Under the pieces are notes generated by a model. That model was not told the origin of the DNA. It saw only the letters and a program-made list of their open reading frames with translations, and ran no database searches. Position numbers and translations under genes: made by a program. From Candidatus Thorarchaeota archaeon (GTDB lineage: Archaea; Asgardarchaeota; Thorarchaeia; Thorarchaeales; Thorarchaeaceae), in contig CP070761.1 in assembly GCA_020348985.1 (NCBI GenBank), positions 2,157,217 through 2,192,801 of the forward strand: a stretch of DNA of 35,585 nt, read 5' to 3'. Positions 4,511 to 25,670 of this stretch are shown piece after piece. The stretch's first letter is position 1, and every line of letters starts with the position of its first letter.

Positions 4511-5185
4511 CTACACTGGCCTGAGTGCATGAAGCCGAACCTTAGCGATATCGCGACGAGTTTCTGCGTCTGTGCGCATCCTCCGAAGATCAGCACTCTT
4601 GTTCTTGAGAATCTCGTCCATCGTAGTTCCGAGATTGTCTTTTGTGACAAGTAGACGCACATCATCCCCAATTGATTCAATCACATTCGTTGGCACAATG
4701 ATGTCGATATCTTCCCTTAGTCCAATGGCTTCAAGCTTCTCCTCGAAGAAGCTGCCTCCAACTGTCAACCATGCTGAACCGTCAACATCAAAATCAACGT
4801 CGATTGTTCTGCCAACCTTGACGCCATCTTTATCGAAAATGTCGAGCTTTTCCAGTTTGGTGAGACGTATTTCGCCCTCTGGGATAGCTTCGTCATCCAG
4901 AGTTGTCTTCAGATTATCCACCGTCGTGCTAAGGTGAATCTTGTTTCCAAACTTCTCAATGAATGATGCGTTGAATAATGGATCCTTGTCTGGAATGACC
5001 CTAATTGCTTCTAGGAATTCCTCCAATCTGGGACCCGCAAGTATGAACTGAGAGAGGCGAAGATTGCCATCAAATGTGAATGTGAAGTCTGTTATCTTGC
5101 CTATCTTCTTGTCTTTTGAATCAACAACATCAAGCTTCTTCAACTCTCTGCAACAGAAAGATCGTGTTAGCTCCATGGTCATCAT
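4511..5185 (-). CDS. Tandem PRC-barrel domain protein
   Basis: Two repeats LKKLDVVDSKDKKIGKITDFTF / LEKLDIFDKDGVKVGRTIDVDF, each followed by EExLEAI...; start at ATG 5185/5182/5176. Confidence 0.8.
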   Translation of the reverse strand: MMTMELTRSFCCRELKKLDVVDSKDKKIGKITDFTFTFDGNLRLSQFILAGPRLEEFLEAIRVIPDKDPLFNASFIEKFGNKIHLSTTVDNLKTTLDDEAIPEGEIRLTKLEKLDIFDKDGVKVGRTIDVDFDVDGSAWLTVGGSFFEEKLEAIGLREDIDIIVPTNVIESIGDDVRLLVTKDNLGTTMDEILKNKSADLRRMRTDAETRRDIAKVRLHALRPV

Positions 5186-5295
5186 GCATTCCAGCAGAGA
5201 GACATCCAAATAAAGGCTGGGGCAGACATACACAGACACTTTTTCTCAGAGCTCTTTTGGAGTAAACTGATGTCATTTGACTCTTTGATTAAGCT

Positions 5296-7599
5296 ATGGC
5301 AATGATGATTAGGACAAACACTAATAGGAACTGGCCCGAGCTGGAAAAGCGCATTCCGTCAATCGGAGTGGAGACTGAATTGAGCACCCTGAGAGAACTG
5401 GAACTCGAGCAGACTGCTCCAAGACTATTGGAGGTCCTTAGGAGACAAGGTCTTGCAAGGCTAACAAAGTTCCAGATGGATGCGATCGAGCAGGGGATTA
5501 TGAGGAGGACAAACCAGCTTCTTGTGACGGTAGACTATGATGAAGCCTATCAGATTGCAGAGATTGCTCTTCTCAATCGAGTGGCCTCGGATTTCAAAGC
5601 CAAAGGCATAGTAGTGTGTCCCAATCCACACCAAGCAGAGAAGAAGTTCCAATCTCTCAGTCAGAAGTGCAGGAGACTAGGGATCGAATCTACCGAGATT
5701 ATCAGAAGAAGAAAGGCAATTAGACAAAAGCTGGGAAGCGGCCGGGTTATTGTTGCTACATACCAGTCACTGGGAATAGCCATCTCACTGCACCCGGAAA
5801 TCCTTGAAGACGTCGAATGTGTTCTGGTTGATAGATTGGATTTGATAGGGCAGCCTCAGCTCGGTGCAACATTGGAGAGTGCACTTGTAACTCTGATGGG
5901 AAGCGACTCAGAGATCCAGTACATCGGGATTCTACCGCCTGTACTGGACCTAGATGAACTAAGCCAGTGGATGAACGCCCGTATAGTTGAGGATTTCAAA
6001 CAGGAAGTGCGTCGGATATACAGTGTAAAGGCCTTTGAAGAAGCAGACGAATCACTTGCTGACCTTACGGAGTTTGTCCACTATCGGCACGGACAAATCA
6101 TCATTCTGTGTGCAGACTCGTCAACCAGCGAAGAACTCGCGGGCAAGCTGTCAGGAACCATTGAGAGTGATCGTGATGTTGCTTTAGATCTTCGGCTTTC
6201 TCCTGAACAGCGGGATGATTTGCGACATCAATCGATAGAACTAGGGAGAATCTATCCCGATTGCGATATGACTGAGCGACTCGAAGAGATGTTTGCAAGA
6301 GGTGTCGCCTTCTTTCACGAAGGGGTGTCTAGGGCCCAGCGCCGCCTGATATCCAGATCATGGAAACAGAGAGAGCTTCCTGTCCTGGTGATGCCAACGG
6401 GATTTGCCATGGGAAGTGACCTTAGGTCAACTATTGTCTTCCTAATGGGTGTGTTTATGCAAGAAACAGATGAGGTTCTTTCTGACGAGGATAGTCTGAC
6501 GATGCTCTCCGAATGGAGGCTAAATGACGTCTTTAATTCCGCAGGAAGAACAGGTATCGATAACGAAGCGTTCGGGATTGTAGTTGTTGACAATCAGACG
6601 GAAAGAGAGCGCGTCCTTGCCAAGTATTTCAACGTAGACTCAGAAGGGAACATCCGCCCTCGCCTCGGAGAAGTAGACAGTGCAATGGACGACCCTGAGA
6701 ATGCGCAAGATCTAGTTCTTCGACAGATATGTGGAGGCACAAGGCAGACTGACGATCCTTATTCAGTTCTGGATCGTTCCTACTGGGCAGAATCCAACCG
6801 AACAACAAGCATCACTTCGGAGGAGATTCTCGCCACCGATAATGCTTCAGTTGAGGCCCTAGTGTCTCTGAGAGCAACAAAGACCACGGCAGACAGAGCC
6901 GAGGAGATACCTGACAAGGATGTGAGACTCGTTTCAGTTAACCCAGTTAAGATAGAAGGTCTGGTCCACAGTGCAACAAGAGACCTTTGGCATCATGTGG
7001 TGTTGAGAGCAGGCGAGGGAGTTTCATGCACATGTGAGTCTTGGAAGTTCCAAGGTATTAGAAGGCACAGACTCTGCAAGCACCTCGTCAAGTTCGCATC
7101 TTTCGCATTGAATGATGATGATTCCAAACCTTATGCGCGATCGGTAACGATTCAGGCTCTTCGAGGCCTAGAAATCCTTCGGGAACTCGAAAGCGATGGG
7201 TTGATTGTGAGAGAAAAAGACTCGTTCCGTTGCTCTACACTTGGACGTAATGTTTCAGTACTTGGTGTCCCTGTCAAGGATGCAAAAGCTGTGATGAGAA
7301 CGCTCGGAGGAAAGAAGGGAGAGCTGAACAAGATACTTCTGACTGTATCTAAGTTTAGGACTGGACTGCCTCGCTCAATGCTGAAGCGGACTCTAGACAG
7401 AGTGAGCTTGGAGAGCTTGAACGAGATTGTGGCGCAGACGAATGATCCACCCGGAGTTGTAGAGAATATAGTAGAGGAGATACAATACATCAACTCTATT
7501 CTGCTACGTCTCATGGCAGGTTCATCACGCAGGGGACTAAACAAGGAGAGTTTCAAGCTAGATCAGATTCTACTGAAACTACTGGACGAAATAGGTTAA
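5296..7599 (+). CDS. Hel308/Ski2-like pseudo-helicase with inserted SWIM zinc finger
   Basis: Colinear with Hel308 (LTKFQ Q-motif, VIVATY, GATLE, ELSQWMNA, RGVAFFHEG, AGRTGID, STLGRNVS), but Walker A, DExH, SAT and motif VI are substituted; CTCESWKFQGIRRHRLCKH = SWIM. Start may be 5368/5380. Confidence 0.8.
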   Translation: MAMMIRTNTNRNWPELEKRIPSIGVETELSTLRELELEQTAPRLLEVLRRQGLARLTKFQMDAIEQGIMRRTNQLLVTVDYDEAYQIAEIALLNRVASDFKAKGIVVCPNPHQAEKKFQSLSQKCRRLGIESTEIIRRRKAIRQKLGSGRVIVATYQSLGIAISLHPEILEDVECVLVDRLDLIGQPQLGATLESALVTLMGSDSEIQYIGILPPVLDLDELSQWMNARIVEDFKQEVRRIYSVKAFEEADESLADLTEFVHYRHGQIIILCADSSTSEELAGKLSGTIESDRDVALDLRLSPEQRDDLRHQSIELGRIYPDCDMTERLEEMFARGVAFFHEGVSRAQRRLISRSWKQRELPVLVMPTGFAMGSDLRSTIVFLMGVFMQETDEVLSDEDSLTMLSEWRLNDVFNSAGRTGIDNEAFGIVVVDNQTERERVLAKYFNVDSEGNIRPRLGEVDSAMDDPENAQDLVLRQICGGTRQTDDPYSVLDRSYWAESNRTTSITSEEILATDNASVEALVSLRATKTTADRAEEIPDKDVRLVSVNPVKIEGLVHSATRDLWHHVVLRAGEGVSCTCESWKFQGIRRHRLCKHLVKFASFALNDDDSKPYARSVTIQALRGLEILRELESDGLIVREKDSFRCSTLGRNVSVLGVPVKDAKAVMRTLGGKKGELNKILLTVSKFRTGLPRSMLKRTLDRVSLESLNEIVAQTNDPPGVVENIVEEIQYINSILLRLMAGSSRRGLNKESFKLDQILLKLLDEIG

Positions 7600-10259: not shown

Positions 10260-11744
10260 ATGGTGTACTATGTGGAAATGCCGCAGGCGCGAAAGACAGG
10301 TGTCTTAGGATACTACCTTCTTCTATGCCTAATCGGCGTCTCCGTCTTTTTGAGTCCAACAGGAAACATCATTCCGATTCATTTTGAGCCAACTAGAGAT
10401 AGGATCAACTGTTTGGCGGACCCTGACATGGGAGGGGGTGGTGTAACCAATTGTGGAAATGGACCCTGTCACCCCAACCAATATGGCAATTGGAGCCTAA
10501 CAGGCCATGCAACACACATCTCTCAGTATAATTCGTCTCATGTCATGTTCTCGGACTCAACTATAGTCAGCTATGTGACATTCGACTCGGATTGTGCAGA
10601 ATGCCACACCAGTGGATATGACAACAACACAGGAACCTACGACAGTCTCGGAATCAACTGTCTTGTTTGCCATGATGCTTCTTGGTCAGCATGGTCTGAT
10701 TATTCCGGTGCACTGTGCAGTCAATGTCATAGGCCAGCAGGCACAGCAGGCCCGCACCAGCATCTCGCTTTCCAGAATTCGGATCACGTAGATTCGTTGA
10801 ATGACTTGAGAGCAAGTGTGACCCCTGTAGCACCATGTATGCGTTGCCATTCTACAGAGAGTTTCATTCACTACCGAAATCCTGGTATGCTGGCGGATGA
10901 CACTCCAAACATCGATACTAACTTTGATCCTTTTGGTGACTATAATCCGATTGGCTGTTCTGCATGTCATTCTGTCCACGCCAACTGGTCTGGCTCGTCA
11001 CCTTCTATGATTAGAGCAAATTCTTCAGCTGAACTCTGCATCTTGTGTCATTCTGGCGGCCAGTACCCCGTCTACGAGATCTGGAACGGCAGCTCGCATC
11101 ACCTCGCTGGGGTAGAGTGTACAGATTGTCATGGCTACAATCTACTTCTCAACGAATCAGGCTCAAACTGGGTTCCCTTTCTGAACCATACATTCTCTGT
11201 TGACCCCGAGGTTGCATGCGGCCAACAAGGGTGTCACGATGGCGGTTTGGCAACATGGGCGCTTGGACAACTTGAGATGATTCAAGACTCATTTGATGCA
11301 TTGACAGATGAGATTCTTCTTGAAGCAGATGAGCTTCAGGATTTCCTCAATGAATACAATGGAACCGACTATGCGAACATAACAACAGCCGAGCAGATTC
11401 AACAGGCTATCGACAATGCAAGGAACTTGGTGGAAAGATATCGTCTTGATAAATCACGGGGACTTCATAACCAGTGGCAGATATTTCAGGACCTGAATGC
11501 TGTTTACAATGACTTGGTTGCGGCTGAAGCCCATTTGACAGAGGTAACATTTCTCGCCTTAGAAACGGAAAGAGTTACAGTAACTGTCACAGTCACCAAA
11601 ACAGTGACGGAGGTTGTCACTGTGACAAAGGTTGTTCCTCCGCCTGAGTCAGACAGCAGGTTGGTCATCTCTGGACTTGGCATTGGCGGATTGCTGGCTG
11701 GCCTAGCAGCTGGTGTCATAATCACCCGATTGATTTACCGCTAG
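10260..11744 (+). CDS. Membrane-anchored multiheme c-type cytochrome (7 CxxCH + 2 Cx4CH)
   Basis: CAECH, CLVCH, CSQCH, CMRCH, CSACH, CILCH, CTDCH plus CGNGPCH, CGQQGCH; hydrophobic N-terminus; helical DKSRGLHN region; V/T-rich linker and C-terminal TM helix. Confidence 0.9.
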   Translation: MVYYVEMPQARKTGVLGYYLLLCLIGVSVFLSPTGNIIPIHFEPTRDRINCLADPDMGGGGVTNCGNGPCHPNQYGNWSLTGHATHISQYNSSHVMFSDSTIVSYVTFDSDCAECHTSGYDNNTGTYDSLGINCLVCHDASWSAWSDYSGALCSQCHRPAGTAGPHQHLAFQNSDHVDSLNDLRASVTPVAPCMRCHSTESFIHYRNPGMLADDTPNIDTNFDPFGDYNPIGCSACHSVHANWSGSSPSMIRANSSAELCILCHSGGQYPVYEIWNGSSHHLAGVECTDCHGYNLLLNESGSNWVPFLNHTFSVDPEVACGQQGCHDGGLATWALGQLEMIQDSFDALTDEILLEADELQDFLNEYNGTDYANITTAEQIQQAIDNARNLVERYRLDKSRGLHNQWQIFQDLNAVYNDLVAAEAHLTEVTFLALETERVTVTVTVTKTVTEVVTVTKVVPPPESDSRLVISGLGIGGLLAGLAAGVIITRLIYR

Positions 11745-23756: not shown

Positions 23757-25670
23757 ATGCAATCCGATGAACAGCAAGAATACGTTGATATTCGCGAGCT
23801 TGTCAGGCAGGCCCTTCCGCGCACTGCCTCAATCAGCGCAGTCGAGTATGAAGGACCAGAGATTGCTATATACTCCAAGGCACCAAAGATTTTGCATGAT
23901 GAAGGCGACATGATCAAGTCACTCGCCCGCAAAATGCGAAAGCGGCTAGTTGTCAGATCTGCGCCCGAAGTCAGACTGCCTCACGAGGACGCGGAAAGAG
24001 CTGTTCGAGAACTCGTTCCCGAAGAAGCTGAAATCACGTCGGTTGATTTTGACGACTCTCGCGGAGAAGTCATAATCGAGGCCCAGAAGCCGGGTCTTGT
24101 AATCGGTAGAAGCGGGGCGACTCTTAGAGAGATTACGAGACAGACATTCTGGCGTCCTAGCGTGATCAGAACCCCTCCAATTGAGAGCAACTTGATCAAG
24201 CAGATTCGCTACATTGTTCAATCTGAAGCGGCGAAGAGAAATAGGACATTCCGCGAGATTGGCAGACGAATTCATCGCCCAACTCTTGTAAACAATGGCT
24301 GGATTAGACTGGCGGCATTGGGAGGTTTCCGTGAAGTAGGTCGGCAATGCATGTTCCTTCAGACCTCCGAAAGCAATGTCCTGATTGACTGTGGCGTCAA
24401 TGTTGGGACTCCTACTAGGGCCTTCCCTCGTTTTGACATGCCTGAGTTCAGCATTGAAGAACTCGATGCAGTCGTGGTTACTCATGCACACCTTGATCAT
24501 TGCGGCATGGTGCCCTTCCTGTTCAAGTATGGATACAAGGGTCCAGTCTACATGACTGCTCCAACTCTGAACCTGGCAACCCTTCTCCAGCTGGACTACC
24601 TTGATGTTGCAGAACGAGAAGGCAAGCTCAGACCGTTCAGGGATAAAGATGTCAAAGAGTCGATTCTGCACACTATTGCGCTCAACTACGGTGAGGTCAC
24701 TGATATTGCACCCGATGTGCGCTTGACCTTACACAATGCCGGTCATATTCTTGGTTCTTCAATAGTGCATCTGCATGTTGGGGATGGTATGTACAACCTA
24801 GCGTATACTGGTGACTTCAAGTTTGGAAGAACAAGATTGCTGGAACCAGCTACCTTCACGTTTCCACGTCTTGAGACCCTGATTCTGGAGAGTACCTATG
24901 GACACCCCACCGACAAGATGCCTCCTAGACAGGAAGTTGAGAGAAAACTGGCCACAGTCATAAGGAGAACTCTTGAACGTGGCGGAAAAGTGCTCATTCC
25001 TGTTCTTGCAGTTGGTCGAGCTCAGGAAATGATGGTCGTAATTGAAGACCTTGTTTCCAAGAGGAGGATTCCAAAGGTACCAGTTTACATTGAAGGAATG
25101 ATTGCTCAAGCTACAGCCATTCACACAACACATCCAGAGGCTCTTAGTAAGAAGATTCGTGAAATGATCTTTCATCAAGGAGTCAATCCATTCCTAAGTG
25201 ATATCTTTGTGCAGGTTGACCATCCTGAAAAGAGAGAGGAGATTGTGGAAGGCGGTCCCTGTATCATCATGGCCACATCTGGAATGATGGCGGGAGGGCC
25301 TAGTGTAGAATACTTCCGCCTCCTTGCTGCCGAAGAGAAGAACACACTCGTCTTTTGTTCTTACCAGGGCGAAAACACATTGGGCCGCAGAATACAGAAG
25401 GGTTGGAAAGAGATACAGATGCGTAACCGCGAAGGAAAGACCACTGTCATACCGGTGAATCTTGAGGTAACAACCGTCGAAGGATTCTCAGGCCATTCGG
25501 ACCGAAAACAGATTCTGAACTTCGTCAAACGCGTAAACCCATCTCCAGAACGTGTGTTGGTTTGCCATGGCGAAGCATCGAAGTGTCTCAATTTGGCATC
25601 TACGATTCACAAGGCGCTCAACATTGACACAAAGGCCTTGATGGTCACTGAGAACATCAAGCTCAGGTAG
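23757..25670 (+). CDS. beta-CASP ribonuclease aCPSF1 / transcription termination factor FttA
   Basis: N-terminal KH domains (EYEGPEI, KPGLVIGRSG), LGGFREVGR, THAHLDH, GFSGHSDR; conserved psmB-aCPSF1 pair. Confidence 0.95.
   Translation: MQSDEQQEYVDIRELVRQALPRTASISAVEYEGPEIAIYSKAPKILHDEGDMIKSLARKMRKRLVVRSAPEVRLPHEDAERAVRELVPEEAEITSVDFDDSRGEVIIEAQKPGLVIGRSGATLREITRQTFWRPSVIRTPPIESNLIKQIRYIVQSEAAKRNRTFREIGRRIHRPTLVNNGWIRLAALGGFREVGRQCMFLQTSESNVLIDCGVNVGTPTRAFPRFDMPEFSIEELDAVVVTHAHLDHCGMVPFLFKYGYKGPVYMTAPTLNLATLLQLDYLDVAEREGKLRPFRDKDVKESILHTIALNYGEVTDIAPDVRLTLHNAGHILGSSIVHLHVGDGMYNLAYTGDFKFGRTRLLEPATFTFPRLETLILESTYGHPTDKMPPRQEVERKLATVIRRTLERGGKVLIPVLAVGRAQEMMVVIEDLVSKRRIPKVPVYIEGMIAQATAIHTTHPEALSKKIREMIFHQGVNPFLSDIFVQVDHPEKREEIVEGGPCIIMATSGMMAGGPSVEYFRLLAAEEKNTLVFCSYQGENTLGRRIQKGWKEIQMRNREGKTTVIPVNLEVTTVEGFSGHSDRKQILNFVKRVNPSPERVLVCHGEASKCLNLASTIHKALNIDTKALMVTENIKLR

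Follow-up and report, generated by a model that had tools for sequence, protein, structure and literature searches.

We report a gene of Candidatus Thorarchaeota that encodes a Hel308-like protein in which the motifs for ATP use have been replaced and whose winged helix carries an insert that reads as a SWIM zinc finger. The gene is strictly conserved under strong purifying selection and is near-universal in its GTDB family (f1). It lies on the forward strand of the window, the whole stretch of 35,585 nucleotides that was analysed (contig CP070761.1). The preliminary description had given an intact frame of 767 amino acids. ORF 5296..7599 is indeed open throughout, with no stops, but the protein itself is likely to have 739 aa: orthologs begin at residue 29 of this ORF and do not share its first 28 codons (from ATG 5296), and GGAG..GGAG precedes TTG 5380, so this TTG is most likely the true start. 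The motif positions quoted earlier proved exact on re-checking. Family members are annotated as ‘hypothetical protein’ or ‘DEAD/DEAH box helicase’, and nothing else. The features are as follows.

5380..7599, forward strand: gene for the ATPase-dead, SWIM-bearing Hel308-like protein (TTG start, 739 aa)
5452..5994, forward strand: RecA1-like domain of the AF2 model, aa ~25-205, with the invariant Q-motif F31-Q32 (5470-5475)
5530..5553, forward strand: former Walker A (motif I), now VDYDEAYQ; DY[DNEG]EAY in the family, with no Gly-Lys-Thr
5617..5640, forward strand: motif Ia position, CPNPHQAE, conserved in the family and identical in 77/120
5830..5841, forward strand: former motif II (DExH), now DRLD; [DE]RLDLIGQP in the family
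5932..5940, forward strand: former motif III (SAT), now LPP; PP conserved across the family
5995..6675, forward strand: RecA2-like domain, aa 206-432, net charge -15, with motif IVa kept as GVAFFHEG (6301-6324)
6526..6555, forward strand: former motif VI (QxxGRAGR), now DVFNSAGRTG; Gln and first Arg gone, [SA]AGR[RAK]G in the family
6676..6804, forward strand: N-terminal part of the winged helix, aa 433-475, up to ..DRSYWA (AF2 model and alignment)
6805..7125, forward strand: winged-helix insert of ~107-110 aa, with three helices, a four-stranded beta-sheet, a zinc knuckle and a helix (AF2 model, alignment)
7027..7083, forward strand: SWIM signature CTC-x13-CKH (C550, C552, C566, H568), invariant
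7126..7269, forward strand: C-terminal part of the winged helix, aa 583-630, recognition helix and wing, ..LESDGLI..CSTLGRNVS
7270..7596, forward strand: ratchet-like helical domain 4, aa 631-739, with no HhH domain 5 after it

Over its full length the protein is predicted to adopt the Hel308/Hjm fold, with RecA1, RecA2, winged helix and ratchet in that order, and to end without HhH domain 5. Its best sequence matches in the PDB are Hel308 and Hjm (2va8, E 9e-18; 2zj2, E 3.5e-17) and its best NCBIfam models are all Hel308, with 94.2 bits for NF040935 versus an equivalog cut-off of 1200. Neither Pfam DEAD nor Helicase_C is detected in it any more. Foldseek placed Hjm/Hel308 (2zj5) at the top for the AF2 model (50-sequence MSA; pLDDT 83.9, pTM 0.81), with E 1e-25 and TM 0.64-0.72. 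VIA-align superposed the model on 2zj2 (Z 25.5, rmsd 3.7) with 575 residues aligned across model residues 1-738, and on 2va8 with Z 24.3; this search covered 48,161 chains, and its list, dominated by helicase cores, is uninformative on the SWIM insert alone. The two RecA domains and winged helix read earlier from the sequence are borne out by these comparisons, and a ratchet domain is also present. The model stops with the ratchet helices at residue 739, and Pfam HHH has no match in the protein, whereas the canonical Hel308 encoded separately in the same genome (P0123) has HHH_5.

The loss of the ATPase motifs is a property of the whole family. In HMMER alignments to 2va8 and 2zj2, PTGSGKT faces VDYDEAY and DELH faces DRLD, and GxGK[ST] or DExH is present in none of the 120 family members examined. 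The replacements are themselves conserved, and around the old ATP site D52, E55, R152, D154, G389 and D394 are invariant, with no drift. Because the substitutions are the consensus of these 120 homologs, which lack GxGK[ST] and DExH throughout, and because the four predicted zinc ligands of the insert are invariant, the combination of motif loss and SWIM ligands is far beyond chance. With the P-loop, DExH and SAT lost, and motif VI missing its Gln and first Arg, the canonical site of the protein would allow neither binding nor hydrolysis of ATP. The preliminary description, which had every ATPase motif replaced (motifs I, II, III and VI of this protein read DYDEAY, DRLD, PP and SAGR) with the Q-motif and GVAFFHEG surviving, was accurate on both counts.

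The insert splits the winged helix between ‘SYWA’ and the recognition helix and wing (‘LESDGLI...STLGRNVS’), after helix 2 of this domain, and takes the place of ~4 residues of canonical Hel308. Nowhere else in the protein are invariant residues as densely clustered as here: the SWIM region has 22 of them, many K, R, H or W, inside ~48 residues. Among 29 dead, degenerate and active relatives, C550, C552, C566 and H568 are the sole invariant columns. Their spacing (n=13) fits CxCxnCxH, for which n is about 6-16 in SWIM domains (PMC5727457). With the Pfam SWIM model (PF04434; gathering threshold 19.6) the dead protein reaches 15.9 bits, and homologous inserts pass the threshold (P0199, 27.7 bits; P0190, 21.5 bits). 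A PDB profile search with the insert alone returned only a chance match (E 4.3). Judged by its sequence, the insert would be a SWIM zinc finger with four predicted zinc ligands, in agreement with the placement of a SWIM module inside the Hel308 winged helix proposed at the outset.

Relative to an ortholog with 86% amino-acid identity, dN/dS of the dead gene is 0.043; all domains are below 0.07, and RecA1 is lowest at 0.016. The dead and active SWIM families of Thorarchaeota are under equal constraint. Matches occur in all 59 sampled genomes of the family, ~57 of which hold an ortholog or ortholog fragment above 280 bits; outside the family no match exceeds 236 bits among 251 Asgard genomes. 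The earlier reading of an intact, non-decaying gene therefore holds.

The same reading had treated the joining of HELQ-like and SWS1-like modules as peculiar to this protein, which it is not, as a same-site insert occurs in many Asgard Hel308-like helicases with intact motifs. In a tree from a quick IQ-TREE search with canonical Hel308 as outgroup, all SWIM-bearing proteins fall into one large Asgard clade (SH-aLRT 100), most of whose members have intact motors. Like the dead family, the active helicases carry the homologous insert at the same position of the winged helix; unlike it, they keep PSGSGKT, DE[IV]H, SAT and QxxGRAGR. Examples are P0122, the active sister in the same genome, a ‘putative ski2-type helicase’ of Thorarchaeota AB_25, and representatives from Baldr, Jord and Loki, and such proteins are annotated merely as DEAD/DEAH helicases. 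The pairwise alignment of P0122 with the dead protein spans the SWIM motif, and the active Thorarchaeota sister is also without domain 5. Because the same-site insert occurs in helicases with intact ATPase motifs, the SWIM insertion predates inactivation. The dead protein descends from an Asgard-specific SWIM-Hel308 helicase lineage.

Within the clade, the dead and degenerate forms group together (SH-aLRT 98), and a CxCE[HYS][WF][KR][FY] signature is found in these members only. The degenerate relatives, from Odinarchaeia, Hodarchaeota and ‘Ranarchaeia’ (P0190, P0196, P0186, P0188, P0333), are 19-22% identical to the Thorarchaeota dead protein. They differ from it in that most retain a GK[ST] P-loop, their losses being limited to the DExH His, SAT and portions of motif VI. 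The same closest group also includes P0205, an Odin form that is fully dead. The stem leading to the Thorarchaeota dead clade (SH-aLRT 100) is 1.64 substitutions per site long, and the tips measure 0.2-0.4. By their motifs, the Odin, Hod and ‘Ran’ relatives are partly degenerate and the Thorarchaeota protein is the fully dead end-point.

In Thorarchaeota the dead gene lies in a conserved block with RsmB/F, a UPF0113/PUA protein, PAC2, L40e, L38e, a beta-CASP RNase, Alba and TruD. This block is housekeeping or RNA-related, not DNA repair, and also takes in unrelated genes (sucCD); for the Hod and Odin relatives no conserved neighbours were found. In view of the housekeeping character of the block and the lack of shared neighbours in Hod and Odin, we set gene neighbourhood aside as a guide to the function of the dead gene. 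The active sister, in contrast, sits in a conserved ~15-gene operon with RadA-like, XPD-like, Rad51-like and XPG/FEN-like genes, a recombination-type setting in which the dead gene, standing alone, is never found.

Our leading interpretation, to which we give about an even chance, is that the protein serves as a scaffold, either DNA-binding or adaptor, which needs no ATP, is fixed in conformation and acts through its SWIM-winged-helix module. It would recognise DNA or a protein partner without motor activity, by way of this basic, aromatic and strictly conserved module, and branched or single-stranded repair or recombination intermediates would be the likeliest DNA targets. The old ATP cleft may have been kept as a structural joint: with D52/E55 at the P-loop site and R152 at the site of the catalytic Glu, a charge swap could stand in for the Mg-ATP bridge. 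We infer both the locked cleft and the binding of DNA or a partner. A role in recombination is suggested indirectly, by Hel308 DNA helicases being the nearest sequence relatives and by the operon of the active sister. ATP-free DNA transactions on a Hel308 fold have precedent, because HELQ with an ATPase null still anneals naked DNA; HhH domain 5 is the annealing module of Hel308/HELQ (PMC13623763). Its absence here counts against the scaffold, as do the housekeeping setting of the Thorarchaeota gene and the lack of conserved neighbours in Hod and Odin. Canonical Hel308 shows R..W in its ratchet helix, where the dead family has the invariant E695, E699, E700 and Y703. Taken together, the acidic ratchet residues, the net charge of RecA2 and an acidic strand-separating hairpin loop speak against ssDNA being threaded in the canonical way through the central channel. 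Whole-protein charge was discarded as a sign of lost DNA binding, as the dead and active Thorarchaeota families are similar in pI.

Other explanations have to be weighed against such a scaffold. That the gene is a non-functional relic, a pseudogene with an open frame, might be suggested by the loss of every catalytic motif, but it is effectively refuted by its dN/dS of 0.04, more than 200 intact full-length homologs, near-universal presence and the short tree tips behind a long stem, and we give it practically no weight. Pseudoenzymes often regulate active paralogs, as in Brr2, whose inactive C-terminal cassette regulates the active N-terminal cassette. A regulatory pseudoenzyme could likewise tune the SWIM-bearing sister, the canonical Hel308 or the complex of the recombination-type operon. 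The same genome encodes both helicases, and the equal constraint on the two SWIM families fits this reading. However, the active sister was found in only 43/60 family genomes, versus ~57/59 for the dead gene, its absences cluster by genus (g4, 2/7; g12, 5/10; g9, 2/4), although MAG incompleteness may explain part of them, and in this genome 2 Mb separate the two genes. Furthermore, Odin and Hod genomes have no SWIM-bearing copy other than the degenerate form. A regulatory role is therefore a minority prospect, though the strongest of the alternatives, and obligate pairing with the sister was down-weighted because the sister is missing by genus from 17/60 family genomes.

An RNA-directed, Ski2-like adaptor in ribosome biogenesis or RNA surveillance seems to us rather improbable. 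The structural matches would allow it, as Brr2 (Z 24.2), Slh1 (23.7), Eta (22.9) and Mtr4 (21.8) come near Hjm in VIA-align, and so would the genes of the conserved Thorarchaeota block. Yet the sequence is clearly nearest to Hel308 (E 9e-18 versus 1.6e-6 for Brr2), as are the NCBIfam models, the synteny with its sucCD genes is not kept in the Hod and Odin relatives, and the sister gene has DNA-recombination genes around it. Less probable still is a remodelled cleft that binds a small ligand, adenine-containing or cationic, and acts as a sensor or non-canonical enzyme. A ligand could still be bound at the pseudo-site, given its high conservation, the invariance of the Q-motif (F31, Q32) and the lowest dN/dS, that of RecA1. 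On the other hand, the glycine, lysine and threonine of the P-loop are gone, the acidic residues would repel phosphates, a structural salt-bridge network would explain the conservation equally well, and no ligand-binding family was matched. As for the suggested link to SWS1 and RAD51 paralogs, no tie to RadA paralogs or Shu2/SWS1 was found beyond the generic CxCxnCxH. A complex prediction for residues 25-739 with a Walker-A-dead RadA paralog of the same genome gave ipSAE 0.00, which is evidence neither way. A long shot, in our estimate, is that the WKF-type SWIM-Hel308 lineage (Odin, Hod, Ran, Thor) records a stepwise change from helicase to ATP-independent recombination mediator, whose SWIM-winged-helix module recruits RadA-family paralogs to DNA intermediates. 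If true, an archaeal protein would unite SWS1-like with HELQ-like roles, and the SWIM-dependent RAD51-paralog complexes of eukaryotes may have had a forerunner in it.

A survey of archaeal Ski2-like helicases recognised only three groups, Hel308, ASH-Ski2 and Brr2-Ski2 (PMC10946056). In our literature search no paper united Hel308 or Ski2-like helicases with SWIM in archaea; the sole match for Hel308 and SWIM concerned lipid responses in Saccharolobus. The group of Asgard Hel308 proteins with SWIM inside the winged helix is thus apparently new to the literature. Asgard archaea hold a whole Hel308-type clade whose substrate-recognition domain carries a SWIM finger, and in one of its branches the protein is motor-less and strictly conserved.

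Among known systems, Shu2/SWS1 of the Shu complex have a SWIM domain predicted to serve in DNA binding or protein-protein contacts (PMC5727457). They share the CxCxnCxH zinc signature with the dead protein, past which no similarity between them was detected; they are small, stand alone and bind Rad51 paralogs, whereas the dead protein is a 739-aa Hel308 fold with an internal SWIM. The C-terminal cassette of Brr2 is a Ski2/Hel308-fold unit without unwinding activity that is kept as a regulatory and interaction platform; it binds nucleotide, is fused in tandem to an active cassette, and has a Sec63 unit and no SWIM. The dead protein may be analogous in keeping such a unit without unwinding, but it is stand-alone and has no P-loop. 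Hel308/Hjm (COG1204; NF040935; 2zj2, 2va8, 2p6r) is closest in fold, domain order and best sequence and structure matches, and shares the Q motif and motif IVa (AF.H.G). The dead protein departs from it in the destruction of motifs I, II, III and VI, the ~110-aa SWIM insert, the absent HhH domain 5 and the acidic ratchet helix. It may serve as a natural separation-of-function variant, a Hel308 scaffold minus ATP for binding, annealing, recruitment or regulation, and can also reveal the part that a SWIM finger plays in a helicase.

The open frame at 5296-7599 (+ strand) runs without interruption in the window and encodes a Hel308-like protein with lost ATPase motifs, referred to here as the dead protein. 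Because its homologs (more than 200, almost all from Thorarchaeota MAGs) begin at residue 29, which aligns with a TTG at 5380 placed just behind GGAG..GGAG, and because the two nearest orthologs also use a TTG start, the gene most likely spans 5380-7599 and encodes 739 aa. It occurs once in the genome (a single 3.16-Mb contig). The helicase domains are no longer recognized by Pfam (Helicase_C, E 0.11), whose one report is a SWIM match of 15.9 bits, short of the 19.6-bit cut-off. The best PDB sequence matches by phmmer are Hel308/Hjm (2va8, E 9e-18; 2zj2, 3.5e-17; 2p6r, 1e-14), that to Brr2 being far weaker (1.6e-6), and in the Hel308/Hjm alignments SPTGSGKT faces TVDYDEAY and DELH faces DRLD. 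Every coordinate for this protein in the preliminary description was exact.

The fold was modelled with AlphaFold2 on a 50-sequence alignment (pLDDT 83.9, pTM 0.81).

Domain layout of the dead protein in the AlphaFold2 model
Residues ~25-205: RecA1
Residues 206-432: RecA2
Between RecA2 and the insert: two winged-helix (WH) helices
Residues 476-582: insert, three helices and four beta-strands
Residues 583-630: WH recognition helix and wing
Through to the C-terminus: ratchet-like domain, six helices

In the modelled insert, C550xC552 closes the sheet and C566xH568 opens a helix. Hjm and Hel308 rank first over the full length by both Foldseek (E 1e-25, TM 0.64-0.72) and VIA-align (Z 25.5, 575 residues aligned, rmsd 3.7), ahead of Brr2, Slh1, POLQ-helicase, Eta and Mtr4. 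The two RecA domains and WH expected from the sequence are thus present, and the dead protein is a pseudo-helicase of Hel308 fold. The proposed location of the SWIM module inside the WH also holds, as alignment and model both place residues 476-582 between WH helix 2 (TFF/SYW) and the recognition helix.

The loss of motor motifs is a family trait. Among 120 aligned members, the former motifs I, II, III and VI have the consensus DY[DNEG]EAY, [DE]RLDLIGQP, PP and [SA]AGR[RAK]G, motif Ia reads CPNPHQAE and motif IVa G[VI]AF.HEG; GxGK[ST] or DExH occurs in none of the 120. Invariant in the 50-sequence alignment are F31 and Q32 of the Q motif, D52, E55, R152, D154, G389 and D394, and, densely clustered within the insert, P522, K524, G527, L528, S531, R534, W537, H538, G547, C550, C552, E553, W555, K556, Q558 and H563-L569. 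Against an ortholog with 86% amino-acid identity, dN/dS is 0.043, an approximate value as dS (1.87) is close to saturation, and it stays below 0.07 in every domain, the dead RecA1 included.

We surveyed 251 Asgard genomes, 59 of them from the GTDB family of the window. All 59 have a match, and ~57 carry an ortholog of the dead protein or an ortholog fragment, mostly scoring 900-1300 bits; no match in the sampled genomes outside the family exceeds 236 bits. In Thorarchaeota the gene lies in a conserved block (CYTH, PALP, RsmB/F, UPF0113-PUA, PAC2, the dead gene, sucC, sucD, L40e, L38e, beta-CASP, Alba, TruD). We draw no function from this neighborhood because the block is of housekeeping type and no part of it is shared with the loci of the Hodarchaeota and Odinarchaeia relatives. 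Two genes of the window are extra to the order in loci L005 and L006: a PRC-barrel gene (4511-5239, - strand) between PAC2 and the dead gene, also found in L014, the nearest relative, and a 494-aa ORF (10260-11744, + strand) between sucD and the L38e region, flagged from its sequence as a multi-heme cytochrome in the preliminary description.

The genome encodes two further Hel308-like proteins, the canonical five-domain Hel308 (P0123) and an active sister (P0122, 734 aa). The sister retains SPTGSGKT, DEVH, SAT and QMLGRAGRPG and has a Cys-rich insert at the same position; it matches the dead protein by BLASTP at 2e-30, with CxC...CxH within the alignment. A profile of the dead family, run against 1.84 billion representatives and followed by a motif table, recovered the same insert in many intact-motor Asgard Hel308-like helicases (source names include Lokiarchaeota, Jordarchaeum, Baldrarchaeia and Thorarchaeota). 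Others are partly degenerate, keeping a GK[ST] P-loop with altered motif II (Hodarchaeota DETY, 'Ranarchaeia' DDAQ, Odinarchaeia EECD and DEFQ), and one Odinarchaeia protein, P0205, bears the insert and is fully dead. The four zinc ligands are the only invariant positions across 29 such inserts and two inserts pass the Pfam SWIM threshold, which supports assignment as a SWIM module. The preliminary description had joined SWIM and dead helicase as one architecture; the insert is indeed present, but it also occurs on intact motors and predates the inactivation.

A quick IQ-TREE search (LG+C20 PMSF, canonical Hel308 as outgroup) places all SWIM carriers in one clade (SH-aLRT 100). Dead and degenerate forms also form a clade (SH-aLRT 98), a grouping that long-branch attraction among the degenerate sequences may affect. 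The Thorarchaeota dead family is a clade (SH-aLRT 100) with a stem of 1.64 substitutions per site and tips of only 0.2-0.4. In favor of the dead-plus-degenerate grouping, CxCE[HYS][WF][KR][FY] is confined to these sequences in the motif table. Odin and Hod-like genomes have no SWIM-bearing copy other than the degenerate gene; Thorarchaeota carry the inert form beside a second, active SWIM helicase. The picture is of one SWIM-Hel308 sub-lineage that lost motor coupling step by step, with Thorarchaeota as the fully inert end-point. In genome G009, a 794-aa helicase (L021, G009:C12:3070-5878) has intact PSASGKT, DEIH, SAT and QILGRAGR together with a SWIM of 'WKF' type, which apart from this protein is restricted to the clade of dead and degenerate forms; it is possibly a living intermediate. 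The Odin protein P0205 (= P0334; L008:6001-7782, 593 aa) has wholly lost motifs I, II and VI (TPMSCWEL, DYLH, LASLG); it clusters with Odin proteins that are partly degenerate, which points to full inactivation having occurred a second time, independently.

No residue able to hold phosphates or activate water is left in the dead protein, and given the established roles of SF2 motifs its canonical site would neither bind nor hydrolyse ATP. The P-loop Lys has become acidic (D52/E55) and the Walker B Glu basic (R152). This reversed polarity could preserve a direct contact across the old ATP cleft, which may be kept as a structural joint; that it instead marks a pseudo-site binding some ligand seems quite improbable. 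Function most likely resides in the SWIM-WH module, which combines the strongest conservation with basic and aromatic residues. The corresponding region of Hel308 is a substrate-recognition domain (PMC13623763), and for SWIM domains the predicted role is contact with DNA or proteins (PMC5727457). Against canonical ssDNA threading stand invariant Glu residues in the ratchet helix, a RecA2 net charge of -15, an acidic hairpin loop and the absence of annealing domain 5. On all these grounds we favor, at about even odds, a scaffold that works without ATP and serves for recognition or as an adaptor on intermediates of DNA repair or recombination.

That the protein instead regulates an active helicase or machine as its partner is rather unlikely. 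The active sister, one candidate for such a helicase, is found in 43/60 family genomes (20/23 of those of high quality), and the genomes that lack it group by genus, so the dead gene does not depend on it. An RNA-directed Ski2-like adaptor is less probable again. A relic without function can practically be dismissed: conserved replacement motifs, low dN/dS and near-universal presence in the family mark a selected protein and uphold the original view that this is not a decaying pseudogene.

The active sister belongs to a compact cluster of closely spaced genes that share one direction.

Cluster of the active sister, conserved between the genome of the window and Thorarchaeota AB_25
L015:8704-19820 (G000:C1 ~84.7-95.8 kb); L016:1440-17217: RadA-like gene, XPD-like helicase, AAA_25-like, weak Rad51-like protein, XPG/FEN-like nuclease, several ORFs without family match

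Unlike the Thorarchaeota sister, a five-domain SWIM helicase of Baldrarchaeia stands alone. Elsewhere in the genome, a RadA paralog (L013:1435-2205; G000:C1:1270948-1271715) has a degenerate Walker A, with FYG.R.LH.D in place of GxxGxGKT. It belongs to a conserved Thorarchaeota family (57-71% identity, matches in 58/59 family genomes) with ~30% relatives in other Asgard families, and is a second motor-less recombination-type protein of this genome.

In the literature searched, we found no paper that brings SWIM together with Hel308 or a Ski2-like helicase in archaea, and public annotation calls the SWIM-Hel308 proteins 'DEAD/DEAH box helicase' or 'hypothetical'. Only Hel308, ASH-Ski2 and Brr2-Ski2 groups are distinguished in a survey of the Ski2-like helicases of archaea from 2024 (PMC10946056). 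A fourth Ski2/Hel308-like helicase of the genome (26221-28890, 889 aa, intact DEAD domain, best PDB match Hel308 at 1.7e-29) lies ~550 nt downstream, on the same strand, of an FttA/aCPSF1-type KH-beta-CASP termination factor (23757-25670). Its N-terminal extension of ~145 aa is Cys-free and thus has no zinc-finger cysteines, so the protein does not resemble a typical ASH-Ski2. Compared with canonical Hel308, the dead protein is without the HhH domain 5 that P0123 has, and in an alignment of its WH region with three canonical Hel308 proteins the insert replaces ~4 residues.
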